From a virus (Duplodnaviria > Caudoviricetes), in the IMG/VR virus record IMGVR_UViG_3300008262_000063, positions 1 through 60,342 of that record: a stretch of 60,342 nucleotides of DNA. One strand, written 5' to 3'. Under the pieces are notes generated by a model, which had not been told where the DNA came from, did not search any database, and saw only the letters and a list, made by a program, of their open reading frames with translations. Shown piece by piece: positions 19,187 through 59,385 of this stretch. Position 1 is the stretch's first letter; the number at the start of each line of letters is the position of its first letter. A program made the translations under genes and the position numbers.

Positions 19187-19951
19187 ATGAATCACCCTTT
19201 CATTTCATGTAAATGTATAACTTATGGTAGAGTAAGTTTGTTAGAGGAAAGTTTATACTCTTTTTTAAATCAAAACTATGATGGAAAAAAAGAAATGATT
19301 ATAGTTAATGACTACCCATTACAAACATTAAAATTCGATCACCCTGACGTTAAGATTTATAATCTGAGTGAAACATTTCAAACTATTGGTGAAAAAGAAA
19401 ATTATGCAGTTTCGTTATGTTCTGGTGAAATTATTGCGGTTTGGGATGATGACGATATTGCATTACCAAATCACCTATCAAACGTTTCAAAATATTTTAT
19501 TAAAGATACCGATTTACTTCATTGGCAAAAAGGAGTATTTTATAACGAACCAAATATTACTGCAATAACAAGTTTGGGAAATTCGGGTATTGTATATAGT
19601 AAACAAATTTGGGAGAAGGTAGGTAAACACCCAATAGAGAATGCCGGATATGATGCAACATTTGTTCATAACATTATGAGAATGTCTAACAAAATTGTTA
19701 AAGCGTCACCACCTGACAATGAAGTATCGTGGTTTTACATGTGGGGAGGAAGAGATTATCATATGAGTGGGATGGGAACTGATTCACCAGAAAGACCTAA
19801 TGTCATTGTAAGACATTCACAATATATTGAAAATGAAAGAAGGAAAGGTAAAATACCAACAGGTGAAATAGAATTAAAACCAAAATGGAAAAAAGATTAT
19901 CAAAAATTATTAAACGATTATAACAATGGCAATAAAGAAAAAAGAAATTAG
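19187..19951 (+). CDS. Glycosyltransferase family 2 (GT-A)
   Basis: 'ISCKCITYGR...SFLNQNY...IIVND...IGEKEN...GEIIAVWDDDD' is the GT2 N-terminal signature. Confidence 0.85.
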   Translation: MNHPFISCKCITYGRVSLLEESLYSFLNQNYDGKKEMIIVNDYPLQTLKFDHPDVKIYNLSETFQTIGEKENYAVSLCSGEIIAVWDDDDIALPNHLSNVSKYFIKDTDLLHWQKGVFYNEPNITAITSLGNSGIVYSKQIWEKVGKHPIENAGYDATFVHNIMRMSNKIVKASPPDNEVSWFYMWGGRDYHMSGMGTDSPERPNVIVRHSQYIENERRKGKIPTGEIELKPKWKKDYQKLLNDYNNGNKEKRN

Positions 19952-38695: not shown

Positions 38696-39871
38696 ATGAG
38701 AACATTAAACAGACATATTAGAATTTCACCTGAAGTTATAAGTAGTGACTTATTCTTGGTTAGATTTAATGCTGGTGGGCAAGTAATTCCATCAGAAATC
38801 GATCCATGCTGTGAAATCACAACAACAACCACAACAAGTAATTTAACAGGGTTGACTTATGTTTATTCATCAATGACACAACTATTGTCAGGTGGGACAA
38901 ATGGAACATCATTATTAACTGGTTTAACAATCCCAATTTTATTAACTGAAACGGCAACTGATATTGGTTACTATTCTGTTTTTGATGGAATGATATTACA
39001 ACAAGATGTAATGAATAATTTCATATTTACAGGGGATTCTGTATTTCCATATTATACAGTTATATTGTATAATACCTCAGAGAATGAGTTGAAAAAATAC
39101 TTAAGTTTCTCAAGTTATGAAATTTCTTGGGGAGATGGACAAACAGAACCAATCTCACCATATACTCCTTTACCAATATCACACACATATGGAAGTGACG
39201 GAGAATACATAATATCAGTAAAAGGAATGAGTCCTTGGGGATTTAATACAATTAAAAAAACTGTGTACATCCCAATTACAGGAGCAACTACCGATAATCC
39301 GAATGGTACTGCTTATTTCACACCATTGGGTGGTAGTTGGTCAGGAACGCCAATTATGTATGATTATATATTCAGCGGAGATGCAAGTTGTGATGCGACA
39401 ATTGATGGATTTGATGATTTCTTATCAGGAAGTCCTTTGGTTATTAGTGGATACACAAAATCATCATTGAGTGACTTACAAGTTTATGGGCCTAAAAATA
39501 CTTTAGTAGGTGGTAAATATAGAGTTGGACCCGTTACAGGTTCAAGTGGGGCTGTTGGAGTATTCTATGGAACTCCATCAAACTCTGATTATACCGCCTA
39601 TACAATAAATAATATTGATTATTATGATTACCCTGATGATATAACAATTTTCATTGTCAGTGGGGTATCTTCGGTTGATTATGTGTGTTCGGCAATAACT
39701 AAAAATGAAGTGTTATTGAATGTAATTTTTGAGCCTGAAGTACAATCAAATGTGTTTATCGAAAGGGGTAAAAATTCTGGACTTGAGAGATTGATTAGAT
39801 TAGGGGAGGTTGATAATATAGGTGACTTAGAAAAGTATGGGTATGGATTTTTCAATATAATAAATACGTAA
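38696..39871 (+). CDS. Structural protein with PKD-like domain and poly-Thr linker
   Basis: 'ISWGDG...ISHTYGSDGEYIISVKG' PKD motif; 'PCCEITTTTTTS'. Confidence 0.65.
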   Translation: MRTLNRHIRISPEVISSDLFLVRFNAGGQVIPSEIDPCCEITTTTTTSNLTGLTYVYSSMTQLLSGGTNGTSLLTGLTIPILLTETATDIGYYSVFDGMILQQDVMNNFIFTGDSVFPYYTVILYNTSENELKKYLSFSSYEISWGDGQTEPISPYTPLPISHTYGSDGEYIISVKGMSPWGFNTIKKTVYIPITGATTDNPNGTAYFTPLGGSWSGTPIMYDYIFSGDASCDATIDGFDDFLSGSPLVISGYTKSSLSDLQVYGPKNTLVGGKYRVGPVTGSSGAVGVFYGTPSNSDYTAYTINNIDYYDYPDDITIFIVSGVSSVDYVCSAITKNEVLLNVIFEPEVQSNVFIERGKNSGLERLIRLGEVDNIGDLEKYGYGFFNIINT

Positions 39872-43800: not shown

Positions 43801-44155
43801 AAGTAATGTATTGAATTCGTATTTAACAACGAATGGACAATCTTTAAGTAATTGTGATTTAAATAGTATGACAACAACATGGTATGTTGATTTACGATTA
43901 AACAATACTACTGTTGTTTCATACCCATTCTTTAATGGTATTGCTTACAATATACCAACATTTAGTACACCGAGTGTTTCTGATTGGGATAATGCGGTAG
44001 TCGCCGCGTTAGAGTTACTTAAAAATTATGGATATAATTATTACTTAACAGAGAGTGATACGGTAGTGGTTTATAGTGAATCATGTGCAATTTCTGAGAC
44101 AATAGTAAACTTTAAAATAAACGTAGGAATAAATTTTCAAATATATTGTAGTTAA
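40832..44155 (+). CDS. Baseplate wedge gp7 / P2 gpI-like protein with Cys-rich C-terminal extensions
   Basis: '[11 protein letters not shown]...[29 protein letters not shown]' is the tail protein I motif. Confidence 0.7.
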
Positions 44156-47100
44156 TGGCTTGTGATTTAAATGTTATAATAAATGGTATAACTGGAGACT
44201 GTTCAAACAGTAGTTTAGGTGCATTTGACATTAGTATTGTTGGAGACGCCCCTGATTATTCAATCCAATGGATTGAACCCCCATTAGGTACAATTGCGTT
44301 AGGACCTGGGGTTACAGGTTATAGTATAAATTCATTATCCGCTGGAACATATACATTAAATGTTTTAGATAGTTGTCCGTTAGAAAATACGGTTTATTTA
44401 TTTAATATTAATATATCATCAGGAACTTGTGTTTCGATTGAATCAAGTGGAACTACTTGTGGATTAAATAATGGATTAATTACGGCATCTACCACAAATC
44501 TTTATGCTCAAGCAAGCTATATTTTATACGAGACTACAAATGGTTATGTTACATCAGGAACAACACCTATCACTAATTTTGTTTTTGGATCATTATCGGC
44601 AGGAACATATTATGTAATTGCTGATGACGGGGGAGGATGCACAGGTAAAAGCCAAAGTTGTATCATCAAACCTTCAAATCCTTTTACTTTTGGTTTATAT
44701 CAAGTTAATAATTCACCTTGTTTCATAAATACAGGTGCATTATATATCACAGGTTTAACAGGTAATCCGCCTTATACTTATTCATGGTCTAATGGTGGAA
44801 TAGGACAATCAATAACAGGATTAAGTAATGGTAATTATTCTGTTGTAGTTACGGATGGGTTAGGATGTAACGCTGTAGCAACTGCAACAATAGAATCCGT
44901 ACCATCAATAGGAACTTTAATTCTGATAGATAGTGAACCGACATGTTATAGCTCAGATGGAGTTGCAACAGTGTATATTACAGGAGGAACAGGTCCGTAT
45001 CATATTGAAGGTTCTAATGGTGATGTAATTATCACCTTTGACACTTCTTATACATTTACAGGATTATCATCAGGATTCTTTTCCGTTACTGTTACAGATG
45101 CTGGTTTATGTCAATCAACTATAACAACAACATTACAAACACCAAGTGGACTATCACTAGTGAGCGTTGATGTAACAAACTCTACTTGTAACAATAATGG
45201 AGGAGGTATACTAGTTTCCATATTCGGTGGAACTTCACCATATCTATACACCCTAACAGATTCATTATCCAATTCAACAACATTCATACAGCCTGTTCAA
45301 AATGGTGGAGCAAATTTCTTAGGGTTAAGTTCAGGGACTTACTTATTAACCATTGATGATAACTTGGGTATATGCCCTTATTCACAATATGTGACAGTTA
45401 ATAATACCGTATTATATACATTGAGTGTTAGTACCACAGGTACAACATGTGGGAATGATAATGGTTCGGTAACTTTATCTATCACAACTGGTGGTACAGG
45501 TCCTTACAATTATCAAATCAATGGACAAACAGTAATCTCAAATACATTATCATATACATTTACAAATTTACCATCAGGAAGTTATACTGCTTCAGTTACT
45601 GATATTAACCTATGTCAACAAATATCACCATTCACAATTAATAGTTCTCAAGCGGTTAATTTCATTTTGAATGGAACAAGTCCTGTTGGTAATAATGGGA
45701 TAATAGAAACATTCATAACAAGTGGTGAACCTCCATTTACATTAAATTGGAGTCCAAATGTCGGAGCTCAATCTGGATTAACTGTGACAAACTTATCAGC
45801 AGGAACATACTCACTAACTGTTGTTGATATTTCAGGGTGTTCACAAACTAGATCGATTGATTTATTAGGTTATAATTTATATTCATCTTATGAAGTTTAT
45901 AACATTTGTTCTGATGATTTAACAAATAGTGAACAGATTATTAAGAAAGGTTTAAAACAAATGTTACTTGAGGGATTCTTTGATTTAACATCTGGTGATA
46001 CAAATTGTATTTTAAATTCATCAATATTCGAGGCTGTCGTATCGGTTGACGGTATTGTCCAAACTGGAATATTTTATAGTGGAACAGGAGTAAATGATTT
46101 CCCAACTGATTCTGTTTTCTTTGATACTGTTGAAAACTTATTATTAAATTATCCGAATATTGAAACGGTTATTATTGATCCTGTGACTGGGAATTTAAAA
46201 ATAAGTACACTATGTAATCCACCAATAACAATCATGGATGCTACGGTAATCATTGATGTTAAAGTTTATTATAATATAAGTTGTGAAGTATGTGCTCCTC
46301 CTGTTAATACGGAAACGATTATTCGTATTAATACAACATTGATTTCAAGTGGATCAACTCCAACGGATAAGTTCCAATTGGCGACAACGTTGGCGGGGAC
46401 TTATAATTTTGATGTTGATTGGGGTGACGGTGTGGTTGAAACAATCACAACTTGGAATGATCCTAAGACTGAACATACGTATGCAACTGGTGGGGTAAAA
46501 GAAATAAGAATAAGTGGACAATTCAGTGGATGGACATTTAATAACGCTGGGGATAGAAATAAACTTATTGAAATTAAACAATGGGGTATATTAGAATTGG
46601 GTGATACTCCAGGTCATTTCTATGGTTGTAATAATTTGGTATTAACTGGTGTTACAGACTTTATTAATTTGTCAACGACATCAACGTTGGAGAACACCTT
46701 CAGAGATTGTACTTCTTTGACAACAATCAATAATGTTGAGTATTGGGACACATCAAATATTACAAGTTTTGTAAACACATTCAATGGAACTGTCTTTAAT
46801 CAGGATATTACATCTTGGGAAGTTTCAGGTGTAACAGATATGTCATTTATGTTCTTTAATAACACATCATTCAATCAAGATATTGGTTCATGGAATGTAT
46901 CAAATGTTGTTGATATGAGTGGTATGTTTTACAATGCAACATCATTCAACCAAGATATTGGTGGATGGGATGTATCAAATGTTACTAATATGAACGTCAT
47001 GTTTTTTAACGCAACATCATTCAATCAAGATATTGGTTTATGGGATGTATCTAGTGTTACTAATATGGCTGGTATGTTCGAAGATGCAACATCATTCAAT

Positions 47101-47874
47101 CAAGATATTGGTTCATGGAATGTATTAAATGTTACTAATATGTCAGTTATGTTCCAATTTGCAACATCATTCAATCAAGATATTGGTTTATGGGATGTAT
47201 CTAGTGTTACTAATATGGCTGGTATGTTCGAAGATGCAACATCATTCAATCAAGATATTGGTTTATGGGATGTATCAAATGTTACTAATATGGCTGGTAT
47301 GTTTTCCAATGCAACATCATTCAATCAAGATATTGGTTCATGGAATGTATTAAATGTTACTAATATGGATAGTATGTTTTCCAATGCAACATCATTCAAT
47401 CAAGATATTGGTTTATGGGATGTATCGAATGTTACTAATATGTCATTTATGTTCTTTAATAACGCATCATTCAATCAAGATATTGGTTTATGGGATGTGT
47501 CAAATGTTACTGATATGAGTGGAATGTTCCTAAACACAACATCATTCAATCAAGATATTGGTTCATGGAACGTATCAAATGTTACTGATATGACTGGAAT
47601 GTTCCAAGATGCAACATCATTCAATCAAGATATTGGTTTATGGGATGTATCAAATGTTACTAGTATGGTTAGTATGCTTAGGGACTGTGGAATGAATCAA
47701 ACAAATTATGAAAATCTACTCATAGGTTGGGACTCATTACCATCGTTACAAATTGCAGTTAATTTAGGTGCGTTAGGAAGACAATATCAAATAGGAAGTG
47801 CTTCAGATATCGCCAGATCTAATATTATCGCTTCTTACTCTTGGACAATAACAGGAGATATAGCGGTACCATAA
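44155..47874 (+). CDS. Adhesin-like fibre protein: SprB repeats + PKD + DUF285/BspA-like 25-aa repeats
   Basis: Several 'TC..NG.I....GG..PY.Y......L..G.Y...VTD..GC' SprB units; 'VDWGDG..EHTY'; 12 'FNQDIG.WDVS.VT.M..MF..A.S' units; cap 'NYENLLIGW...WTITGD'. Confidence 0.85.
46795..47694 (+). repeat. Tandem array of 12 x 75-bp coding repeats (DUF285)
   Basis: Units start at 46795+75n with TTCAATCAAGATATTGG consensus. Units 4 (47020-47094) and 6 (47170-47244) are identical. Confidence 0.95.
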
Positions 47875-48511: not shown

Positions 48512-51500
48512 TTATATATCCAATTTAATCAAAATCTGCTGAATACCCTGTCTTAAAACAGGAGATTGCATTTTCGATATAATCATAAGATTTTTGTCAG
48601 AATCGTAAAGACCAACCTCAGTTATGTAACGATTGTTACTTGATAACCAAGTTGGGTTTGATGGAGTTTGGAATTCCGCTTGACTTAAATTAATCTTATA
48701 TACCATTTCATAAATTGTTGCTTGAATATCAGTTTCAACATTACCATAAAAATAATATTCATCACCAAAGTTAAGTTGATGTCCTGTAAATCCTACAGTT
48801 GTTAAATCAATATAGTCACTTAAATCATAAATGTCAGCATCATCATATAAATCCTGAGTGATTACAAATGTATTTGCGGTTAATGATTGTTGAGTGATAA
48901 ATCCGTTAATCGTTGAACCACTCAATTGATCTGTGAAATCAATTATCTTCCATTCATCTGATTGAGGTCTTCCCGTACCATCAACCTTTTGACAAATTAT
49001 TTCAAATTTATTTGCAAAAAATCCTGGTATTAAATCACAAACTGTTGGACATAATGTTGTCGTAGTTGTAACAGGAAATAAAGTTGTAGTGGTTGTCGTT
49101 ATATTACAAGGATTAATTGTTGTAGTTGTTGTACATACTGATTCACACAAATCAATAGTAAAATCATCTCCTGATATTAAATTAATTACATCTGTTGTCA
49201 CAATACCACTTATTGTAAGTACACAACCAGTGTAAGGTGATAAAGATAAATCGGTAGTTACTTCATTAATCACACCATAACAATCTACATATGTTAGTTC
49301 TGTACTTCCAGCACAAGGACCACAATTTTCAGTTAATGAAACACACTGACAACCAAGGGTAAATACATCCAAGAATGTTGTTGACGAAACTGATGTATAT
49401 GATGGATTGGTTACAGTCCAGTTACCTAATGGAGAGTCCTCGATGGTAAGTCCTGGTAATATCGCGATTTCGGTTGAACCTGAAGAAAATATCCAATTAG
49501 ATCCATTATAAGAAATTAAAGAATTACCTGAACCAATAAAGTCAATATAAACTAATTCTCCTGAAATCAATGATGGATAAAATAATAAATTATTACATAC
49601 TTCATCAAGACCTATCATCTCACAATATTCTAAAACGAATGGTTTGTATTGATCACAAGTTGAAAATCCTGTTATAGTATTTTCACCAATATCATATGAA
49701 AAATCACCAATAGGATTGTCTAACATACTATCAAATGTTAATAGTAGTGGATCTGTTAAATCACTTGGAAGAATAACCCAATTTGTACCATTAAAATAAA
49801 AATTATATATAGTCTCCAAAAATGTAACATAAATTGGTTGTCCATTTAAGAATTTAGTAGTGGGGTATAAATATAAACCAATATAACTTCCTGGTGTTTC
49901 AAATCCATTGTCTATCCATAAAATGATACCATCATACCAACAAGGACAAGGATTAACTGTTGTTGTGGTTGTGGTAACATTGGATAACTGATTTAAACAA
50001 GGAAACTCAGAACCAAAACGAATTGCAACATTCTGTGATGGTATTGGATTACAAGTGACATTTGGTCCTTGAATTCGTGAATAATAATTACAATGTAATG
50101 AATTGGTATAATCAAAAGTATTTGATAATCTGTAAGTTACATAAAGATACTCAGAAGAACCTGTCAATATACCTTCAATAGAATTGTTATCAACCCCACA
50201 AACATTTGGAGTAATCAATGTTACTTTTGGTGCAGGTAATGTCCAGTTTCTGTTTGATTTATATGACATTGATGCTATAATTTCCTCATCATCAAAAATG
50301 ATTATTTTCGAATCTGGGAACACTTTACCAACTCTACTAGGATAACCGTCCAAGTTTGGATTTGTATCCCACAAATGGTAATATCTGATACCAGGCGTAT
50401 TCATGTCAGAGTTTTTGGTTGACTCTAAATGATGTACAGTAAATAAATTCAAATCTTCAAAACCTGGAGGATCAACATAGAAAGATTGTCCATTACAACA
50501 ATTAGGGTTTTTATGCCACATTATCCATGGTAAATCTATTCTGAAATTTCTTGCTTGTCCTGTTGTATCCTCAACACCATCATCAAATGGTTCTAAAGCA
50601 AATTTCTCTCCATAAAACAAATCAACTGTCTGATTGGTATAATGTACAATAGAGATAGCTTTTTGTTGTTCAGGTGTAACTGTTACTTTTTCATCAAATG
50701 AATTATAGTAATAAACAGAACTTGTATCTGTTTGTCCACTACTTGAAGCATAACCGAAATATTCTTTTGAGCCCAAATAGTTTATAGAACCGAATTTAGT
50801 ATAATCTTTATAAGCATTTGGATCGATACCTGCTGGTGTCTCAGACCAAGGAATATTCATATTCCATATCTTCACATCAAATTCATCTGTATAACAAACT
50901 GATTCGTAATTGATAACATTATTAGACCAATGATTACTTGGAGTTATACTATCATAAATTTCGGTAATTACTGGTGGGTAAACTAACACTCTGGCATAAC
51001 ATTCTGAACTGAATGTTGAAAAGTCAGGAGTGGTTCTATCCAAAGTGATTAAGTCATTACAAACATCAATTACTCTATATGTTAAAATTGTATAACAAGA
51101 TGAAACATTAACCAAACAATCAACTGGTGGTGGAGGACAACAAGGATTTATAAATGAACAAGTTGTCGTTGTTGTAGTGGTAGTTGGTATCGGAGTAACA
51201 CAAGGATTTGTTGTTGTTGTGGTTGTTGTTGGGCAAGGATTTGGACTACATTCCCCCAAATTAACAAGATTGTATAAACCAGCACCCTCAACTGTTGGAA
51301 CTGTTGAACTCAATGTACAGAAAGTAAAAGCAGTTGAAGATAATAGGATTGATGAAAAAGATCCACTACAACCTGTATAATTTAATAGTATTGAAGTTTT
51401 ACCAACGGATATTTGATATTCAGTACAAGAAACACACGGAGATGTTGTAGTTGTGGTTGTAGTACCCGTAATACAAATACAATCTGAAATTCCATTCCCA

Positions 51501-52036
51501 TCAAAATATATTGTAACAATATCACCTTTTTGTATGGATCTAACTGAATTATCGTTACAAGAATTGTTAATAAGATTAATTGTATTTGTCCCAATTAATG
51601 TACTCATATCAACAATATAATTAGAATTAATTACGTGAGTGTTATTTGTTTTAGCACTCCAATTAATAACATCACCTACAGTTGTTCCCGTGAAAAAACC
51701 TCTAGGAGATGCTCTATTATAGACTGGTTCAACAATAGAAGCCATAAATGGAATTCCATATGTGTTGCCGGCTGTACCATCAACATAATATGGATATTTT
51801 ACGTTTTCTTTATTTGATTGTGGAACTCCAGCCGAGTTCTGAGCATTGAAACTTGGTTCTAATACGAAACTGTTAAATTGATTATAACTTGATTGAGGTA
51901 ATGCGTTATATGAAACCTCACTATCACCAATTTGGAAATATGATATGTTAAAATTACCTTGAGAAATCTTTAACCTACCTGTATCGGTAATTCTCGTATT
52001 TATTAAACCTGATGTATTTTTTAAAATGTATCCCAT
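48512..52036 (-). CDS. Tail fibre/baseplate-attached protein with Cys-rich modules and poly-Thr linkers
   Basis: N-terminal 'ITDTGRLKIS...ISYFQIGDSE' and C-terminal 'YITEVGLYDSDKNLMIISK' form a split tail-collar (P2 gpH N-terminal-like) motif. Seven runs of 5-8 Thr. Confidence 0.7.
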   Translation of the reverse strand: MGYILKNTSGLINTRITDTGRLKISQGNFNISYFQIGDSEVSYNALPQSSYNQFNSFVLEPSFNAQNSAGVPQSNKENVKYPYYVDGTAGNTYGIPFMASIVEPVYNRASPRGFFTGTTVGDVINWSAKTNNTHVINSNYIVDMSTLIGTNTINLINNSCNDNSVRSIQKGDIVTIYFDGNGISDCICITGTTTTTTTSPCVSCTEYQISVGKTSILLNYTGCSGSFSSILLSSTAFTFCTLSSTVPTVEGAGLYNLVNLGECSPNPCPTTTTTTTNPCVTPIPTTTTTTTTCSFINPCCPPPPVDCLVNVSSCYTILTYRVIDVCNDLITLDRTTPDFSTFSSECYARVLVYPPVITEIYDSITPSNHWSNNVINYESVCYTDEFDVKIWNMNIPWSETPAGIDPNAYKDYTKFGSINYLGSKEYFGYASSSGQTDTSSVYYYNSFDEKVTVTPEQQKAISIVHYTNQTVDLFYGEKFALEPFDDGVEDTTGQARNFRIDLPWIMWHKNPNCCNGQSFYVDPPGFEDLNLFTVHHLESTKNSDMNTPGIRYYHLWDTNPNLDGYPSRVGKVFPDSKIIIFDDEEIIASMSYKSNRNWTLPAPKVTLITPNVCGVDNNSIEGILTGSSEYLYVTYRLSNTFDYTNSLHCNYYSRIQGPNVTCNPIPSQNVAIRFGSEFPCLNQLSNVTTTTTTVNPCPCWYDGIILWIDNGFETPGSYIGLYLYPTTKFLNGQPIYVTFLETIYNFYFNGTNWVILPSDLTDPLLLTFDSMLDNPIGDFSYDIGENTITGFSTCDQYKPFVLEYCEMIGLDEVCNNLLFYPSLISGELVYIDFIGSGNSLISYNGSNWIFSSGSTEIAILPGLTIEDSPLGNWTVTNPSYTSVSSTTFLDVFTLGCQCVSLTENCGPCAGSTELTYVDCYGVINEVTTDLSLSPYTGCVLTISGIVTTDVINLISGDDFTIDLCESVCTTTTTINPCNITTTTTTLFPVTTTTTLCPTVCDLIPGFFANKFEIICQKVDGTGRPQSDEWKIIDFTDQLSGSTINGFITQQSLTANTFVITQDLYDDADIYDLSDYIDLTTVGFTGHQLNFGDEYYFYGNVETDIQATIYEMVYKINLSQAEFQTPSNPTWLSSNNRYITEVGLYDSDKNLMIISKMQSPVLRQGIQQILIKLDI

Positions 52037-52060
52037 AAAATATAAATATAATGTTTTATA

Positions 52061-52786
52061 TTATGTAGTTGAGACATTGCAACAACTACACCCAAAAATG
52101 TTAAGATTGCTTAAAGAATAAAATTCTTCATTGGTTGTAAAATAACAGTTTATATCAGTATTCTTAACCGAAGAAGTTGTTGTTGTAAGTAAAAAATCTG
52201 TAGAACCACTCAATGTTAAACCATTCCAAGTATCCGTAGATGTATTCACAAACAAGGTTTCTGATTGACATCCAGGGATTAAATTAAACGTTGAACCTGT
52301 GGTTAACCCTGTCGATGAGGGTACAACCGTAATTGAATCAATCACAAGTTGAGAATTGGTTGTTGTGGTTGACGCTGAATACACTGGTGAAACTTTATTA
52401 ACATTCGTATGATTTAAATCGAATGTAATGTAAGTACCATTTGGTAAGGATGGGGTTACAACAATATTTGTTTCGTATTTTTTAGTTAGAGTTACACTGT
52501 TATTTTGTAATACTGAAGTTTTCGTATTTAAATAAACACTGTAAGTTATTGGATCGTTTGGTTTATTTAGAATTACTGTATTTGTACTAGTTGCCGATAG
52601 AGAATCTTTAACAATTACAGTATAAATCCCTGTACACAAATTTATGAATAAAGGTGTGTTTCTAAAAGAAACTCCAGCATCGATAGAATATGAATATGGT
52701 GGAGTTCCGTTCTGAGCTGTGACAGATAAAGAACCATCACATCCACATATTCCTTGATTTAAATTAACTGATGAAAATAGTGCCAT
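52061..52786 (-). CDS. SprB-repeat protein (241 aa)
   Basis: 'CGCDGSLSVTAQNGTPPYSYSID...FINLCTGIYTVIVKDS'; Thr/Ser-rich. Confidence 0.7.
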   Translation of the reverse strand: MALFSSVNLNQGICGCDGSLSVTAQNGTPPYSYSIDAGVSFRNTPLFINLCTGIYTVIVKDSLSATSTNTVILNKPNDPITYSVYLNTKTSVLQNNSVTLTKKYETNIVVTPSLPNGTYITFDLNHTNVNKVSPVYSASTTTTNSQLVIDSITVVPSSTGLTTGSTFNLIPGCQSETLFVNTSTDTWNGLTLSGSTDFLLTTTTSSVKNTDINCYFTTNEEFYSLSNLNIFGCSCCNVSTT

Positions 52787-52794
52787 TTTTTATT

Positions 52795-53499
52795 TTAAAA
52801 ACATGAGCCTTCAGAGACTGTAATAGTTGATTTTGCTTTAACTCTGTAAAGAATTGTCCAGCCTGTGAAGTTTTGATTGATACCTGGAATAGGTGGATAT
52901 GATGGATTTGAATTAAATGTTGTTATACTATTTGTAGTAAAAATACTTGTTGACGATCCTGAAACTGACCACCCCCCATTATTTGGTATTAATGGATCAT
53001 AATAAACAATTTCTTGTCCCGTTGGGTCGGAAATCCACTTTGGATAACCATTTAACGTCCCATCAGGTACAAAATTAAATGAATATTGTTCTGTTATTGT
53101 TCCATCAATTGACGTTACTGTAATTGTCATACAGAACGAATATACTTCATATGGTGGTAAAGTTGTTGTTGAAGTGGTAGTTGTTGTAGTTGCGGGAGGT
53201 CCTCCGACAGTACAACTGGTAGTCACCATAAAATCACCATAATAATCAGTAATTGATGCTGTGTATGTACCAACAGATAAATTACCTATAGTTTGTCCAC
53301 CCTGAATTGTTTGTCCATTTGGATATGTCCATTTTATAGTATACGGAATTGTACCACCAGTAATACCAAGAGTAATAAAGCCATTGGATAAACTCTCTTT
53401 TCCTGTAACATTTGTTACATTACATTTTACTATCATTGGTGCCACAGTAAAAATACTACAACTATTAACAGGTAAGTATCCAGGATTTTGGTATGCCAT
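52795..53499 (-). CDS. SprB-repeat protein with poly-Thr linker (234 aa)
   Basis: 'NGFITLGITGGTIPYTIKW...NLSVGTYTASITDY' then 'PPATTTTTTSTTTLPP'. Confidence 0.7.
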   Translation of the reverse strand: MAYQNPGYLPVNSCSIFTVAPMIVKCNVTNVTGKESLSNGFITLGITGGTIPYTIKWTYPNGQTIQGGQTIGNLSVGTYTASITDYYGDFMVTTSCTVGGPPATTTTTTSTTTLPPYEVYSFCMTITVTSIDGTITEQYSFNFVPDGTLNGYPKWISDPTGQEIVYYDPLIPNNGGWSVSGSSTSIFTTNSITTFNSNPSYPPIPGINQNFTGWTILYRVKAKSTITVSEGSCF

Positions 53500-53523
53500 A
53501 AAATTTATTTTCTATAAATAGAT

Positions 53524-54504
53524 TTATTGTTCATTTTTTATGACATTTTTCATTTGTTCAATATATTTTATGGTTGAACTGTTTTTTTCGATATAATCGA
53601 AAAAGTTTGGATTCTCTTTTAGTTTTAATAATGGATTAACATTAATAAATTCGCCTTTATAAAATTTAGAGGGCTTCAAATCTTCGGTAACACCCGCCAT
53701 GTGTAAAATTGGATGTTTTTCATATGTTGCAATTGTATCTGTCGCCCAAGAAAAACTTAAATCATTAACAATCCTTGTTTCATGTCCTGTCCGCCACAAA
53801 TTCCAAAGAACCGCCCACATATCGGCCGTCCATATTTGAAGATCTCCTGATGGAATTCTATGTCTCATATTAAACTCATAAAGTTTACGATATAGAACCT
53901 CACAATCAGTGAAAACCTTTTCCCAAAAAGTATAATCTGTATTTTTTATAAGGTATTGAGCCCCACCAGAATTCTTATTATTTTCTTTTACCACTTCAAC
54001 GGGGATATCAATAATATCGGACATTAATTGAATCAATTGTCCTTTAGATAAGTTTGGATGGTGGGTTTCGTATCTTTGACAACATCCCATGATATAATCA
54101 TAACTGATATAACTAAGAGTGTCTGATAAATATACAACATCATCTTGTAATAATTTATCAAAATCGGGTAGTTGTCTGAAAATTATATCAGAGTCATGAT
54201 AGAAATAATATTTACCTAATTCAGGATATTCTTTTAACCATCTTGAAAGAGCTAATGGTCTTAAACTTGGGATATATTTTTTATCTTTTCTATCATCAAG
54301 ATAATGATGTATATTAATTCCCAAGTCTTTCATTTTCAAAGATTCCTCAGTTGGGGAGGTATTACCATTAACCATCACAAACAAAACGTGAATATTTTCA
54401 GGTTTGATACCTTTTTCTATGAAATTATTAGTATATACTTTGGTTTGCCAATGAAAATAAGGAATGTCTGGATGAGCAGATACAAAAACTAAATTATTCT
54501 CCAT
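53524..54504 (-). CDS. GT-A glycosyltransferase resembling HPAT/SGT1 (GT95/GT96) protein O-glycosyltransferases
   Basis: 'YFHWQ', 'YIPSLRPLALSRWL', DxD 'HDSDIIF', 'GGAQY', 'WTADMWA', 'ILHMAG', 'FYKGEF', in the same order as the plant family motifs as recalled. Confidence 0.65.
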   Translation of the reverse strand: MENNLVFVSAHPDIPYFHWQTKVYTNNFIEKGIKPENIHVLFVMVNGNTSPTEESLKMKDLGINIHHYLDDRKDKKYIPSLRPLALSRWLKEYPELGKYYFYHDSDIIFRQLPDFDKLLQDDVVYLSDTLSYISYDYIMGCCQRYETHHPNLSKGQLIQLMSDIIDIPVEVVKENNKNSGGAQYLIKNTDYTFWEKVFTDCEVLYRKLYEFNMRHRIPSGDLQIWTADMWAVLWNLWRTGHETRIVNDLSFSWATDTIATYEKHPILHMAGVTEDLKPSKFYKGEFINVNPLLKLKENPNFFDYIEKNSSTIKYIEQMKNVIKNEQ

Positions 54505-54539
54505 AAATTTTTATCAAAAATATAGAGGATAATTTGACT

Positions 54540-55754
54540 TTATAAATAATATAGAATATCCGCAGTACCAACAAAAGTTGCATTCGCTCCCAATGGGGTT
54601 ATACAAATCCACATTTCATCTCTAGTGCCATCAACATTTTGACCCGGTCTAATTTGATTATCATCAATTTTTGTTGTTGTTAAAGCAGATGTCCCCGCTT
54701 CACCAATTAATGATGTCATTATATGACCTGGTGAAGTTATTGTGGGTGTACCATCACCTAATGAGTACTGAAAAGGTGAGTTTGGTATATCAACCCAAGT
54801 TGGTGTTGACGATAAAGTCGGATTAAATTCCATTGACATTAAGTAATTGTCATTTGATGTGTTTAATATACTTATTGAGTCAAATTGTGATGTAACACCA
54901 ATATACCCCTCCTTTAACCTATAACCAATGTATGGATATTTCGTACCTGATAACAACATAGTGGTTGTCGCAGTATAAGGAACTGACACTGTTGAATACA
55001 GTCCGTTTAAAGCACCTTCTGTTGATGTTTGAGAACAAATCATATCAAAATAACCTGAACCAACCCCAACTTGTCTTATCTCGTATCTTATCGGTTGATT
55101 TGGCGATGACATATATACTGTTGGGATATTATTTGCTGCCGTATAATCAATAAAATATATTGTTTGACCAGATAATACCATACCAAATCTCATTCGACCA
55201 ACACCCAACCATTGATAATCAACTGTCATTAAATTAGATTGAGACCAATCAAAATTATTTGGGTTAAATTCAGTAGTACCCCAAGTTGTTGAATCCGCAC
55301 TAAAACTACAAGAACCACTCAAGTAAATATTAAATGTATGCGCACTTGTAACACCATTACTCTCCAAAAAGAAACCATCGAAAACTGAATTATAGGGAGA
55401 ACCAGTTGTTGATTGAAAACATCCAACTCTTTTAATTACATTAGGTTCTATTTGAAAATTACTAAAACTACCTTCAAATAATTGACTTTTACCTGGTTGA
55501 TAAATTGGATGTGTTTTAGTCTTACGAATAACCAAGTCATTGTTAGCTGAGGTTGACATTCTCACTCTTGCATATTGTTGGTCAAATATTGATGTAGCTG
55601 TACCAGCCGTAACCTCACTAACTTGAAGTGGGTTTTTATCAAATGTATGTTTGATATCCAAAAGATTTTGTACTGCGGCAGTCCTTAAACGACCAAAAGC
55701 GTCCAAGTTAGGACCATCTGAATATTTTACTGAGTTATTAAAAATGTATGCCAT
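54540..55754 (-). CDS. Hypothetical virion protein (DAFGRLR motif; possible lectin-like beta-sandwich)
   Basis: 'DAFGRLR...YQPGKSQL...DGFFLE...DYQWLGVGRMRFG' pattern seen in phage structural proteins; the fold is an inference. Confidence 0.55.
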   Translation of the reverse strand: MAYIFNNSVKYSDGPNLDAFGRLRTAAVQNLLDIKHTFDKNPLQVSEVTAGTATSIFDQQYARVRMSTSANNDLVIRKTKTHPIYQPGKSQLFEGSFSNFQIEPNVIKRVGCFQSTTGSPYNSVFDGFFLESNGVTSAHTFNIYLSGSCSFSADSTTWGTTEFNPNNFDWSQSNLMTVDYQWLGVGRMRFGMVLSGQTIYFIDYTAANNIPTVYMSSPNQPIRYEIRQVGVGSGYFDMICSQTSTEGALNGLYSTVSVPYTATTTMLLSGTKYPYIGYRLKEGYIGVTSQFDSISILNTSNDNYLMSMEFNPTLSSTPTWVDIPNSPFQYSLGDGTPTITSPGHIMTSLIGEAGTSALTTTKIDDNQIRPGQNVDGTRDEMWICITPLGANATFVGTADILYYL

Positions 55755-55755
55755 A

Positions 55756-56775
55756 TTATATTAGCCACCAATTATTATTTCTTGCCACCAATGTAAGTGA
55801 CATATAGTTTATGTTCATATCAACGTAAGAATTTCCATCTATTGTTCCGACTGAGGGTGTTATTCGAATCCTATATGAACCAGCATTTCCCCCCTCATCT
55901 TTTATGATTAATTTTAATCCAGTTAAATTTGTTGGGTCAGGTATAGTAACATCAACATTACCTAAATAATTTATTCCATTATAAGTTATACCTGAACTAA
56001 GAGTTATTGCCGATGTTGTTATACCAGTTGTACTAATGAATTGGGTTGAACCTGTTGAATATACTGTACCTGTAACATTTAAATCACCATATATATTGAA
56101 TTCATTACCTGCGGCAAAAACCAAATTACTTCTATTAACACTAGTTGTACCATTACCAATTATGAATGCTGATTGAGTTGATGCTGTTAAATTATACTGT
56201 CCTTGAGCATGTTGAAAACTACCTACAGTAATAGTGCCTAATCCCTCAGAATGAGATCCTGTCCCAATTGAAATTGTATCACTACCCTCAGAGTGTGAAC
56301 TTCCACCTATTGATTGAGTAGTGTCACCTTCAGCGTGAGAATAAGGACCATATGATATTGAATTGATACCCTCACTATGTGAATATCCCCCATTTGATTC
56401 AGTTGTTCTACCTTCAGAATGAGACCAATTACCTGAAGCAATATTTAATCCACCATTCGAAAAAGAGTAATCACCTGATGAAGTATTGGATTGTCCAAAT
56501 GAAAAACTCAATAATCCTGTCGATGTTGAGCCCGTAGATTGAAATGAGTTTTGTATTGTAATTGGAGAACAACCATATATATTTGTGACATAAAAATCAG
56601 TAATACAGTTACCACTACCACCACTGAATGGTGTGAATAAATTAATAAATTGACCTAAAGTTGCTTTATATGAAGAACCTGCAGGATTTTGTGATGTATC
56701 ACCCGTAATTACAATATGAATTAAATCATTCGGAGTAACACCTGTCGCTAAGGTTCTATCAGTAAGAAATGCCAT
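55756..56775 (-). CDS. Fibre protein with YadA-head-like 14-aa repeats
   Basis: About 8 units of S(H/F)(S/A)EG-x9; neck-like 'FIIGNGT...RSN'; C-terminal 'IKDEGGNAG...I.G......INYMSLTLV...NNWWLI'. Confidence 0.7.
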   Translation of the reverse strand: MAFLTDRTLATGVTPNDLIHIVITGDTSQNPAGSSYKATLGQFINLFTPFSGGSGNCITDFYVTNIYGCSPITIQNSFQSTGSTSTGLLSFSFGQSNTSSGDYSFSNGGLNIASGNWSHSEGRTTESNGGYSHSEGINSISYGPYSHAEGDTTQSIGGSSHSEGSDTISIGTGSHSEGLGTITVGSFQHAQGQYNLTASTQSAFIIGNGTTSVNRSNLVFAAGNEFNIYGDLNVTGTVYSTGSTQFISTTGITTSAITLSSGITYNGINYLGNVDVTIPDPTNLTGLKLIIKDEGGNAGSYRIRITPSVGTIDGNSYVDMNINYMSLTLVARNNNWWLI

Positions 56776-56796
56776 TTATTTTTTATTTATAAATAG

Positions 56797-57096
56797 TTAG
56801 GACATAAAGAAATAACCAACACCATCCATAAAATAAAAATCTTCCAGATTCATAAACTCTTTGATGTCTGCGCTACAATATAATACTTTGAATCTTTCAC
56901 AACCATCACTTGTAATTACTTTAACCCCAATAGCTGGTGCGGAATTGAATTGTGGTGGAAGAATAATTGTATTTATTGCTGGCACTGTGGTGGAAATGTA
57001 TGCTAATAAAATACATTGATTACCAAATACATCACAAACGTAAACGGTATATGGTTGATTTAAACCGATGATGTTATTGAATACTAATGCTGTCAT
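56797..57096 (-). CDS. Small Cys-containing Ig/SprB-like module protein (99 aa)
   Basis: 'G..QPYTVYVCD....C...VKVITSDGC'; paralog of 59170-59385. Confidence 0.65.
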   Translation of the reverse strand: MTALVFNNIIGLNQPYTVYVCDVFGNQCILLAYISTTVPAINTIILPPQFNSAPAIGVKVITSDGCERFKVLYCSADIKEFMNLEDFYFMDGVGYFFMS

Positions 57097-59166
57097 TTAT
57101 AATGGATTACAACACATAAATATTACGTAGTTGCGGAACCCCCAATAATTGAGATACATTCCCAAACTTTGGAACGAATTCCCCGCCAAGAACGATGAAG
57201 AAGAACCCAAAGGTAATGAAGGATAACTTGCAGAATATGAAATATATCGCCAACATTCATTTTCATAAGGGAAATCAGTTAAACTGAACACTTGATTAGG
57301 TATTGATGTCGGACCTAACAATGTTTGAATAACATATTCATTTGTTCCACATCTTTGGAATAAATAATACCCGACAGGAGCTGATGACGTTGGTGTAGGT
57401 GTTAATGTTGGAGTAACCGAAGGTGTTGGTGTCGGAGTTGGTGTTAAAGTAACACTTGGAACACAAACTGAACAATCGGCATCCAAATCTAACGGACCGT
57501 CAACCAAATCAATGTAATTCATTCCATTAATTATTAAATCAATACCAACATATGTAATACATCTTGAAATACCATCAACATTCGCTTTGAATACTGATAA
57601 CTGAGATAATGTCCCACCTGATGGTAAAGGTAATGGATTTGAAGCATAATACAAATTACCATTTTCACAATCAATAAATTTCTTACTACTTGGACAATCA
57701 ATTAAACCAAGAACCGTATTGAATGTTACATTACCTGAAACACTACAAGGTCTTGTAACTTCGGGTGAATTGGATGGTGTAATTGTCGGAGTTGGGGTTG
57801 GAGTTGGGGTATAACCACTTATAGTTACATCAATTGCTCTACCGCCACAAGGATCACTTGGTGATGGTGTTGGTGTCATTGTTGGAGTTGTGGAGATTGT
57901 TGGGGTGATACTTGGTGTGGGTGTAACCTCACAATCAAATATTGCATTAAAATCTAACACAGAACAATTAACAGTTGGGGTTGGAGTAGGAGTGGGACAA
58001 GCACCACTGAATACATAAGTGTCACATAAATCAGGACACAATGAACTACAAGGATATTGTCCTTCCAATAAACAAGTTCCATCTAATATTGTTGATAAAC
58101 ACCAAGTTCCACCAGTTGTATAATAGATAACATAACCATTTGTTTCACCACTCCAATAAGGCTCAGAGTTATGAATTCCACCATATTTGAAATAATCATC
58201 ATAACCCAAACCAGTGTCATTAACGCAATAATTAACAATGGGTTGCCTATCAATTAGAATACAATATGGAGTTCCACTACAAGTGTATAAACTATAACCA
58301 CTTGGACAAGTATAACCTGTATTGGTTGTATCACCACTAGATGATAAAGGTATTTCTTGACCAATAAAATCTAAAGTACTGAATAAAGTATTACCACTTA
58401 ATTGAGAATAACTAGTGTACCCACTTAGGGTTGAAACATCTCCACTATAAATCTCGGCACAAAAAGCTGCAAAATCCCCAGTATTTAAACCTTCTAGTTC
58501 AATAATATTTAACCCTGAGTTTAGTGTTATTGGGAATACGTGGTGATTAATGAAAATAAAACTATAACCTGTCATTGATTGTGTTACAGTAGTAAAATTA
58601 CTACTTCTACAATCTACAAGTGTTTGATTATTAACTTTTAATCTAATGTCATTATCAGCAGATAAACCAAAATAATAAGTTCCACCACTAGCAATATCCA
58701 AACAATATGAAAATCCTATCCATTCATTTAGTGGTGGTGCTGGAGTACCTGTTGACGGCCAAATACCCGCATCATTTAGTCTTCCTGTTATTGTTGAACC
58801 TAAACCCCATAAAGAGTTTTGGATTGAAGTTGGTCCATAAGTTCCATCATTATTAACTCCACTACCGACTCCACCAGCTTGCATGTTTAGGATTCTACCA
58901 CTATTATCTAATAAGAATTCTGTACTAAATAAAGGTGTTCCATTTTCAGTTGTTGTACTTCCTGTTGTTCCTGAGTTTGAAATAGGAAATGATAAATTAG
59001 TAATATCTTCGTAAAAGATTACACCTAATTTATTATAAACGGAAACATTACTTGATGCGAAACCAGTGTAGAAATAAGTTCCACCACTTGTTGCTGCGGT
59101 TGTGGTAAATATACAATCATCTGAATCTATGGTTGGGGTATAACCCGATGGACAAGGACAACTCAT
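57097..59166 (-). CDS. Cys-rich protein with PA14-like domain and Pro-Thr repeats (689 aa)
   Basis: 'GTYYFGLSADNDIRLKVNNQ...ITLNSGLNIIELEGLN' is PA14-like; CPSGY motif twice; four PTPTPT linkers. Confidence 0.7.
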   Translation of the reverse strand: MSCPCPSGYTPTIDSDDCIFTTTAATSGGTYFYTGFASSNVSVYNKLGVIFYEDITNLSFPISNSGTTGSTTTENGTPLFSTEFLLDNSGRILNMQAGGVGSGVNNDGTYGPTSIQNSLWGLGSTITGRLNDAGIWPSTGTPAPPLNEWIGFSYCLDIASGGTYYFGLSADNDIRLKVNNQTLVDCRSSNFTTVTQSMTGYSFIFINHHVFPITLNSGLNIIELEGLNTGDFAAFCAEIYSGDVSTLSGYTSYSQLSGNTLFSTLDFIGQEIPLSSSGDTTNTGYTCPSGYSLYTCSGTPYCILIDRQPIVNYCVNDTGLGYDDYFKYGGIHNSEPYWSGETNGYVIYYTTGGTWCLSTILDGTCLLEGQYPCSSLCPDLCDTYVFSGACPTPTPTPTVNCSVLDFNAIFDCEVTPTPSITPTISTTPTMTPTPSPSDPCGGRAIDVTISGYTPTPTPTPTITPSNSPEVTRPCSVSGNVTFNTVLGLIDCPSSKKFIDCENGNLYYASNPLPLPSGGTLSQLSVFKANVDGISRCITYVGIDLIINGMNYIDLVDGPLDLDADCSVCVPSVTLTPTPTPTPSVTPTLTPTPTSSAPVGYYLFQRCGTNEYVIQTLLGPTSIPNQVFSLTDFPYENECWRYISYSASYPSLPLGSSSSFLAGNSFQSLGMYLNYWGFRNYVIFMCCNPL

Positions 59167-59169
59167 TTG

Positions 59170-59385
59170 TTAAACTACTAAATTTGAGATTATTTCACAA
59201 TTATTATCATCAACAACTTTAATATTATATGATAATTGACCATCCATAATTAATGGTACATCAAATGAGTACGTTCCACCACTATAGGTATCAACATAAA
59301 CACAAGTAGTAAGAGGATCATCACAAAGATAAATGTCAAAAGGTGTTGCACCTGAAACTCCATTTATTGTTATTGTTGTTGGCAT
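59170..59385 (-). CDS. Small Cys-containing Ig/SprB-like module protein (71 aa)
   Basis: 'GATPFDIYLCD....C...IKVVDDNNC'; first gene of the minus-strand operon. Confidence 0.7.
   Translation of the reverse strand: MPTTITINGVSGATPFDIYLCDDPLTTCVYVDTYSGGTYSFDVPLIMDGQLSYNIKVVDDNNCEIISNLVV

Follow-up and report, generated by a model that had tools for sequence, protein, structure and literature searches.

A stretch of 60,342 nucleotides from a tailed virus (Duplodnaviria; Caudoviricetes), which is the entire IMG/VR virus record IMGVR_UViG_3300008262_000063 and is hereafter called the window, was analysed with a focus on the minus-strand open reading frame (ORF) at 53524-54504 and on the runs of consecutive threonines encoded by its neighbours. 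The 326-amino-acid (aa) product of this ORF belongs to the family phrog_4417 and is predicted to be a cytoplasmic enzyme that O-glycosylates the Thr tracts of virion proteins, a reading to which a probability of about 70% is given. The single-domain form of the family is strongly associated, in both directions and with controls, with poly-Thr on structural proteins that are not homologous to each other, the phages concerned having hosts in three phyla. As judged from sequence, phages carrying the enzyme next to Thr runs probably coat their particles with sugar. The initial annotation had proposed that this phage O-glycosylates its own Thr/Pro linkers, of which the poly-Thr part is supported by the pairing described below and by homology to hydroxyproline O-arabinosyltransferases (HPAT), while the evidence for the pairing covers poly-Thr and not the PTPTPT linkers as such.

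A total of 77 GenBank phage records had a homologue of the enzyme (tblastn, E <= 1e-5), from which 10 lineages were fetched with one record per apparent lineage, their hosts being Chryseobacterium, Enterococcus (2), Lacticaseibacillus, Clostridium, Lactococcus (2), Staphylococcus, Lactobacillus and Arcanobacterium. Runs of five or more Thr (T5+) appeared within 3 kb of the enzyme gene in 10 out of 10 lineages, and in eight of them the run was in the gene immediately upstream. Overall, 22 of the 328 ORFs of these regions had T5+ runs, mostly major tail, tail tube, head or protease-region proteins and often at the C-terminus. Moreover, the enzyme gene lay inside head/tail modules, and not lysogeny or replication modules, in all 10 lineages. 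The arrangement in each phage was as follows.

Enterococcus phage phiFL1A: enzyme directly 3′ of the major tail protein gene; the tail protein ends in TTTTTSTTTTTTSSTTTTTTT, and a head-region protein has three more runs.
Clostridium phage phiCTP1: enzyme directly 3′ of the tail tube gene; two runs in the tail tube and one each in the portal and a small head protein.
Lactococcus phage 1706: enzyme directly 3′ of the major tail protein gene; T10 at the end of the tail protein.
Staphylococcus phage PMBT8: enzyme directly 3′ of the major tail protein gene; T16 at the end of the tail protein.
Arcanobacterium phage TPWB06: enzyme after the major tail protein gene, with a short coding sequence overlapping the tail gene end between them; T9 at the end of the tail protein.
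Lactobacillus phage LpeD: enzyme after two small proteins, which share nine runs between them.
Chryseobacterium phage MA9V-3: enzyme preceded by a run-bearing protein, another such protein being encoded two genes upstream; Thr/Ser tracts are long.
Lacticaseibacillus phage R3.3: enzyme after a probable capsid gene; two runs.
Enterococcus phage vipetofem: enzyme beside a major head protein without a run; T9 at the end of the tail protein, 1.8 kb away.
Lactococcus phage bIL285: enzyme beside a major head protein without a run; T9 at the end of the tail protein, 1.3 kb away.

In phage LpeD, orf68 (L548:9572-9976), directly before the enzyme, is annotated as a 'glycoprotein' and has TTTTTTSSTT repeats resembling the mucin-like gp2 of equine herpesvirus; this label comes from low-complexity similarity, yet it may name what the protein really is.

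The association was also found in the reverse direction, starting from IMG/VR loci chosen solely for eight consecutive ACN codons (the first matches found, not a random sample). Among the matches listed, the family was present in 7 out of 118 loci, with 30-42% identity to the protein of the window, and the family gene came directly after the Thr-run ORF in all seven, none of which was from the window's own lineage. In control scans for (GCN)8, (GGN)8 and (AAY)8, the family appeared in 0/119, 0/117 and 0/120 of the loci among the matches listed, the G+C content of the ACN, GCN, GGN and AAY sets being different (0.41, 0.55, 0.48 and 0.31, respectively). When the listed matches were classified by their translated content, 7 of the 88 loci with a T8 ORF had the family, compared to 0 of the 367 others (Fisher p = 8e-6). 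Furthermore, the tail protein of bIL285 has 194 homologues with <60% identity in GenBank phages whose genera do not appear among the enzyme-bearing records. The C-terminal T9 was missing from the five orthologues fetched from these enzyme-less relatives (5/5), and, among 80 IMG/VR loci with a bIL285-type tail protein (44-70% identity, 6-kb flanks), none had the enzyme and only one had a T5 run. Co-occurrence of homologues with poly-Thr structural genes, which the initial annotation had named as a check, thus holds in unrelated phages, in both directions and with controls. Within the window's own lineage (52-81% identity), 78 out of 80 IMG/VR loci had ORFs with T5+ runs or PT/PS linkers beside the enzyme gene, the remaining two ending just downstream of it; owing to shared ancestry and several duplicates, these 80 loci count as one case.

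The match of the 326-aa protein to phrog_4417, a family of unknown function, had an E-value of 5.3e-67 (227 bits; residues 7-321 on profile positions 3-291 of 293), while no Pfam family at E <= 0.1 and no NCBIfam model matched it. A word-indexed search gave 2297 relatives, with no Pfam domain in the best 120 of them, and another search gave 823 representatives at 50% identity. Six motifs had been read in this ORF by the initial annotation, all of which are present in the order then given: YFHWQ (residues 16-20), YIPSLRPLALSRWL, HDSD (103-106), WTADMWA (225-231), ILHMAG and FYKGEF; the second needs a correction, with four residues, not three, between Y and RP. In an alignment of 61 family sequences reaching down to 32% identity, Y77, D106, Y132, G181, W225, M229, F251, H268, G271 and K283 were invariant, and Y16, W19, Q20, D104, W230 and F281 were conserved in at least 90% of the sequences.

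The protein is predicted to adopt a GT-A glycosyltransferase fold closest to the retaining GT8-type enzymes, according to its AlphaFold2 model (predicted local distance difference test, pLDDT, 97.3; predicted template modelling score, pTM, 0.93). The top matches of this model against the PDB with Foldseek were all glycosyltransferases, the catalytic domain of UGGT (E 3e-8) being followed by WbbM, LARGE1, XXYLT1, glycogenin and GT6 (E 3e-8 to 3e-6), with modest template modelling scores of 0.39-0.44. With VIA-align, the best match was glycogenin-1 (3u2t; Z 15.1, root-mean-square deviation 3.5, 225 residues aligned); LgtC, UGGT and Skp1 alpha-galactosyltransferase had Z 14.2 each, WbbM 14.1, GlyE 13.3, the PBCV-1 capsid glycosyltransferase A64R (2p6w) 11.3 and the prophage teichoic-acid transferase TarP 9.9. 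Overall, the structural matches of GT8 and GT24, including a GT8 protein of Anaerococcus, covered most of the domain with Z 13.1-15.1. A DxD motif (D104-S-D106) appears after the strand at residues 99-102 and is accompanied by a late His (H268), both being likened to GT8 at the level of motifs. In the model, strand 1 spans residues 6-12 and no N-terminal helix precedes it, which predicts a soluble protein of the cytoplasm and makes a membrane anchor unlikely.

The GT8-type enzymes that act on proteins (glycogenin, GlyE, Skp1 alpha-galactosyltransferase and UGGT/GT24) are therefore the best folds (Z 13.3-15.1, 216-243 residues aligned) and share the DxD motif and the late His with the 326-aa protein, GlyE being the enzyme of the pneumococcal serine-rich repeat protein pathway. 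However, their sequence identity to it is 6-14%, and Glyco_transf_8 (PF01501) was absent from the Pfam matches of the 326-aa protein and of its 61 + 94 relatives. Moreover, most of them extend an existing sugar or act on themselves, instead of starting on poly-Thr.

By sequence profiles, the relationship leads to HPAT (PF23452, CAZy GT95). The by-eye recognition of an HPAT-like protein in the initial annotation was right at the level of remote, whole-domain homology, with the protein itself staying below the Pfam threshold for PF23452; the route to the plant enzymes runs via bacterial proteins that are themselves peripheral members of the Pfam HPAT family. In particular, the family profile weakly matched two proteins of 290-294 aa in Acidimicrobiia contigs, used as a bridge, for which 83 relatives were found, 62 of them with PF23452 in precomputed annotation. 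When the family profile was aligned by hhalign to a profile of 34 PF23452-bearing relatives, the probability was 89.1% (E 2.2e-6, 252 columns), as against 0.15% for an unrelated profile used as negative control, and reciprocal searches with hidden Markov models of the family and the bridge set matched 48/83 and 87/270 proteins. The motifs paired in this alignment were PYFHWQ with PY..WQ, YIPSLRPLALSRWL with Y..NRL.SL.EWL, HDSD with LDPD, WTADMWA with WESDM.A, ILH with IIH, and FYKGEF with LW.K..Y. Furthermore, PF23452 was the nearest named family by language-model features, being the sole Pfam family of 19 of the 30 nearest named ESM-Atlas clusters (scores 0.96-0.97); in the two clusters shown, it was carried by 10% and 58% of the members. 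Direct searches with PF23452 gave no match in the window's whole record at E <= 10, none in 301 Bacteroidota genomes and only an unrelated 11.6-bit match in five bacterial genomes holding family members, whose family genes were unmatched.

Plant HPAT are Golgi type II membrane proteins that transfer arabinofuranose to hydroxyproline (Hyp), and the peptidyl-serine alpha-galactosyltransferase (GT96, SGT1) is related to them; these enzymes start glycosylation at Hyp or Ser residues of cell-wall proteins that are extended and repetitive. The same logic of a first sugar on a repetitive protein is proposed for the poly-Thr tracts. The collinear motifs shared with the bacterial PF23452 proteins are PY..WQ, Y/N-R...L..WL, DxD, W..DM.A, IIH/ILH and K..Y/F. 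In contrast to the plant enzymes, the 326-aa protein is predicted to be soluble, lacks an N-terminal membrane anchor, and has Thr as presumed acceptor instead of Hyp or Ser.

The ORFs around the enzyme that had been listed by the initial annotation are all present on the minus strand at the coordinates it gave, in a co-oriented array running from 59385 down to 48512 with gaps of only 0-35 nucleotides. Genes of this array are listed below together with two plus-strand genes.

48512..52036, minus strand: 1174-aa Cys-rich modular protein with seven poly-Thr linkers; candidate acceptor.
52061..52786, minus strand: 241-aa Thr/Ser-rich protein (17.4% Thr) with two T4 runs and one SprB-type repeat.
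52795..53499, minus strand: 234-aa protein directly downstream of the transferase; candidate acceptor.
53524..54504, minus strand: 326-aa soluble GT-A glycosyltransferase-like protein (predicted), phrog_4417, remote HPAT relative.
54540..55754, minus strand: 404-aa protein directly upstream of the transferase; matches phrog_1645, 'virion structural protein' (E 3.4e-45).
55756..56775, minus strand: 339-aa fibre-like protein with repeats resembling the head repeats of trimeric autotransporter adhesins; matches phrog_25468 (E 9.8e-16).
57097..59166, minus strand: 689-aa Cys-rich protein with four PT/PS linkers; possible acceptor.
38696..39871, plus strand: 391-aa protein in the baseplate/fibre block with one T6 (38819-38836); further candidate acceptor.
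19187..19951, plus strand: 254-aa GT2-family glycosyltransferase in the replication block (PF00535, E 1.9e-10, 41.4 bits vs. a cut-off of 23.3).

The Thr runs of 5-8 residues reported for the co-oriented neighbours were counted as eight, seven of them in 48512-52036 (51443-51463, 51209-51229, 51161-51184, 49958-49975, 49118-49132, 49082-49099 and 49055-49069) and one in 52795-53499, where TTTTTTSTTT (T6 at 53173-53190) appears between two domains. The PT linkers described in 57097-59166 were likewise found as four PT/PS linkers of 7-9 residues each (57973-57996, 57856-57876, 57784-57810 and 57418-57444). For a protein of 1174 aa with 12.4% Thr, about 0.03 runs of at least five Thr are expected by chance, while seven were observed. 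In the remaining 32 ORFs examined, no run of at least four Thr was found apart from the two T4 in 52061-52786. The runs are encoded by mixed ACA/ACT/ACC/ACG codons, which indicates that it is the protein sequence that is maintained and that slippage repeats in the DNA are not involved. The runs are also flanked by Cys and Pro, and both features give them the look of linkers under selection that join Cys-rich modules.

No Pfam, PHROG or NCBIfam match was found for the protein of 48512-52036, and no Pfam or PHROG match for that of 38696-39871, which lies outside the range covered by the initial annotation. The SprB match in 52061-52786 (E 2e-5) and a weak PA14-like stretch in 57097-59166 (E 1.9e-4) were below the cut-off, that of Pfam in the first case, and the scores of 55756-56775 against EmaA/YadA-type models were far under the model cut-offs. 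The GT2 gene at 19187-19951 sits between the genes of a single-strand binding protein and a UvsX-like recombinase, and its product could extend a virion glycan or modify DNA. In Lactobacillus phage LpeD, a GT2 gene is also present, approximately 8 kb from the phrog_4417 member.

For the acceptor, the donated sugar and its linkage, as well as for the timing and any benefit to the phage, we infer the following scheme. The product of 53524-54504 would be a soluble GT-A glycosyltransferase that depends on metal and is produced late in the infection. In the host cytoplasm, it would transfer the first sugar from a host nucleotide sugar to the threonine hydroxyls of poly-Thr tracts, and possibly of Thr/Pro tracts. 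An alpha linkage would be probable, as retaining enzymes are the nearest solved folds, and the glycan might be extended by other transferases, perhaps the GT2 enzyme of 19187-19951 or host enzymes. The poly-Thr tract would be a tag, encoded in the genome, that marks the acceptor and is read by the enzyme, the modified tracts would be the links between folded modules of the phage's own fibre-like proteins, and exposed parts of the virion would thereby receive a mucin-like coat. Because the tracts of the window are internal linkers of large Cys-rich fibre-like proteins and not C-terminal tails, the sugars would stiffen or protect these linkers, adhesion and shielding being further putative roles put forward by the initial annotation.

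The family is also found in bacteria, and a total of 80 loci from bacterial and archaeal genome assemblies were considered, with four further genes being cut by contig ends. The single-domain forms (<400 aa), mostly prophage-like and from Firmicutes and Bacteroidota, had a T5+ ORF within 6 kb in 24 out of 34 loci, while the fused forms (>=400 aa) were mostly in Chitinophaga, Pedobacter, Mucilaginibacter, Sphingobacterium and marine Acidimicrobiia. Among 10 long relatives scanned, three had PF11397 (GT60 GlcNAc transferase), one of these also with protein O-fucosyltransferase (O-FucT) and discoidin domains, and another one had GT6. Furthermore, 94 additional relatives included fusions to Glyco_transf_7C (7), GT6 (2), GT2 (2) and GT29 (1), as well as one each to GDP-mannose dehydratase, epimerase and sulfotransferase. 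This repeated fusion to sugar enzymes indicates that the family domain works in multi-step glycan building.

The largest fusions, of 1013-1377 aa (L554, L556 and L562, from marine Acidimicrobiia and Bacteroidota), join the family domain to discoidin (F5/8 type C) and GT60 domains, protein O-fucosyltransferase being a further domain in one of them; L554 and L556 also encode an HPAT-family paralogue on the opposite strand, at a distance of approximately 4 kb. Moreover, 10 of the 83 bridge relatives (P0343-P0353; relatives of L554:1216-2100), 354-387 aa long, were fusions of PF23452 with PqqD (PF05402), and an eleventh (P0354, the weakest match) had PF05402 alone. PqqD is a peptide-recognition or peptide-binding element of modified-peptide pathways, and these fusions suggest leader-guided peptide glycosyltransferases of the same superfamily. 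A Chitinophaga contig (L575:5998-7722) encodes a fused form of 574 aa, with an N-terminal family domain and a weak Glyco_transf_7C match, adjoining an HlyD-type protein, a LanC-like protein and a weak SPASM match, so that the locus looks like a modified-peptide gene cluster. Together, this locus and the domain listings hint at a wider superfamily of peptide-modifying enzymes that find their acceptors by other means.

A broader proposal, for which the balance tips only slightly in favour, is that poly-Thr sequences are portable tags that have spread horizontally (across at least three phyla) with a dedicated polypeptide O-glycosyltransferase sharing ancestry with the plant and PqqD-fused enzymes. 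Under this proposal, phages ranging from 36-kb temperate siphoviruses to jumbo myoviruses would gain mucin-like coats, and their enzymes would belong to one ancient superfamily glycosylating repetitive or leader-guided peptides.

Several observations weigh against O-glycosylation of the Thr tracts by the phrog_4417 enzyme. First, the evidence for a glycan or an activity of the family is computational throughout, Thr/Pro linkers are also widespread without known glycosylation, and the putative virion proteins next to the enzyme in the window are called as such from PHROG and repeat matches only. Second, the fold alone leaves the acceptor unfixed, as LgtC and WbbM, enzymes of lipo-oligosaccharide and polysaccharide, are among the nearest folds. 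Third, the Pfam HPAT model (gathering cut-off 23.9 bits) had no match to the 326-aa protein at E <= 0.1, PF23452 matched 1 out of 61 relatives, with E 0.09 only, and none of the 94 others at E <= 0.01, and the bridge proteins exceeded the cut-off narrowly (26.5 and 28.0 bits). Regarding the pairing, no T5+ ORF appeared within 6 kb in 10 of the 34 single-domain bacterial loci (some on short contigs), and the fused forms of bacterial chromosomes had Thr-run neighbours in only 2 out of 44 loci, so the family is not tied to poly-Thr everywhere. In addition, the gene adjoining the enzyme in vipetofem and bIL285, that of the major head protein, has no run, with the runs being 1.3-1.8 kb off, and one run-bearing ORF of phage 1706 is annotated as a holin, the other annotated ones being morphogenesis proteins.

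Three other explanations were considered, each of them less likely than O-glycosylation of the Thr tracts. The enzyme may act on a non-virion target, such as teichoic acid, lipopolysaccharide, capsule or phage DNA, the nearby Thr/Pro tracts being ordinary flexible linkers, as would be compatible with the high ranks of LgtC and WbbM (Z 14.2 and 14.1), the match to TarP and the fused relatives, which mostly lack Thr-run neighbours; moreover, phages are known to encode glycosyltransferases that act on DNA or convert the serotype, as also mentioned in PMC12619734. Nevertheless, this is considered unlikely, given that the gene lies within the head/tail modules of the 10 GenBank lineages, that enzyme and Thr runs co-appear on non-homologous proteins in phages of three host phyla, and that both are missing from the relatives of bIL285 (enzyme in 0/80 and run in 1/80 loci).

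Modification of the Thr tracts with a sugar-1-phosphate or another non-classical group, by an enzyme similar to Stealth or GlcNAc-1-phosphotransferase, is highly improbable. A sequence search of solved structures with the single 326-aa protein gave no match, and the sole match of the profile search was the GNPTAB catalytic domain (E 0.069), a fold type that also appeared in the structural search (7s6n, Z 9.7), along with a Stealth_CR2 match in 1 of the 61 relatives (E 0.17); however, these matches are weak and far under those of GT8-type enzymes (Z 13-15), and the HPAT-family homologues, like the fusion partners, are glycosyltransferases of the classical kind. Finally, a structural or assembly factor with an inactive glycosyltransferase fold, with Thr tracts unmodified or modified by the host, would fit a gene lying between structural genes and a family known here from computation alone, but it has the slimmest chance of the three, because the conservation of the DxD aspartates, H268 and K283, invariant or nearly so in the 61 aligned sequences (identity down to 32%), would not be expected if the protein were a scaffold without activity, and the domain is repeatedly fused to other sugar-handling enzymes.

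The proposed O-glycosylation of Thr tracts can be compared with other viral systems. To our knowledge, glycosylation of phage virion proteins has been experimentally shown only for actinobacteriophages. For mycobacteriophages, virion glycosylation by phage-encoded glycosyltransferases in the host cytoplasm was reportedly described by Freeman et al. in Cell Host Microbe in 2023, and the system proposed here would likewise be a phage-encoded modification of the phage's own virion proteins in that compartment. As given in PMC12619734, the glycans of mycobacteriophages are at the C-termini of capsid and tail-tube subunits, sites that match the location of the Thr runs in the Firmicutes phages carrying the family. 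In contrast, a different enzyme family is involved, none of the 77 GenBank records with a homologue being a Mycobacterium phage, and the presumed acceptor is a recognisable poly-Thr tag, which in the window is placed in internal linkers of large fibre-like proteins instead of C-terminal tails. The hosts also differ, being Bacteroidota and Firmicutes with one Actinomycetota (Arcanobacterium), and the pairing of phrog_4417 is known here from computation alone. A64R of the chlorovirus PBCV-1 is also a virus-encoded cytoplasmic GT-A enzyme acting on its own capsid protein, although it makes N-linked glycans, belongs to a eukaryotic virus and ranks under the GT8 matches. No report of the phrog_4417 family or of phage poly-Thr glycosylation was returned by a full-text literature search, with subscription journals falling mostly outside it.

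If the Thr tracts are glycosylated as proposed, a sugar coat would be a common trait of virions among phages infecting lactic acid bacteria, enterococci, staphylococci, clostridia and Bacteroidota, and also among large uncultured phages from aquatic settings, with a bearing on phage stability, adhesion to mucus or cell walls, antibody recognition in phage therapy and the control of dairy phages. A large unannotated family, linked to the plant HPAT family, would also gain a function, and the simplicity of the system, with one enzyme and a short tag, would make it a possible tool for site-directed glycosylation in the bacterial cytoplasm.

The oversize tail protein of Enterococcus phage phiEf11 was considered as an instance of the system and dropped. 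This major tail protein migrates at 28-30 kDa, compared to a predicted 21.5 kDa, and an unknown modification is suspected by the authors of PMC5221750. Neither the family nor any run of at least four Thr was found in the first 22 kb of this phage, and its mass anomaly is therefore unrelated.

With regard to the phage itself, the CheckV completeness of the record was 21%, so the window would be a fragment of a phage of perhaps 290 kb. Its G+C content was 26-35%, and its PHROG matches were those of a T4-like myovirus set, including baseplate hub and wedge proteins, a DnaB-type helicase and a primase, a UvsX-like recombinase, a single-strand binding protein and both subunits of ribonucleotide reductase. 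The host is probably in the Bacteroidota, since the nearest GenBank phage homologue of the transferase is in Chryseobacterium phage MA9V-3 and SprB repeats are found in several proteins of the window. One of these, of 1239 aa (44155-47874, plus strand), is a large, fibre-like protein with 12.1% Thr and no Thr run, in which SprB repeats (E 7.5e-13) are accompanied by a long array of DUF285 repeats (E 4.7e-131). Furthermore, a 530-aa protein (381-1973, plus strand) strongly matched phage homing/HNH endonuclease families (phrog_3339, E 2.6e-114) and also a family of 'Mom-like DNA modification protein' (E 6e-10).

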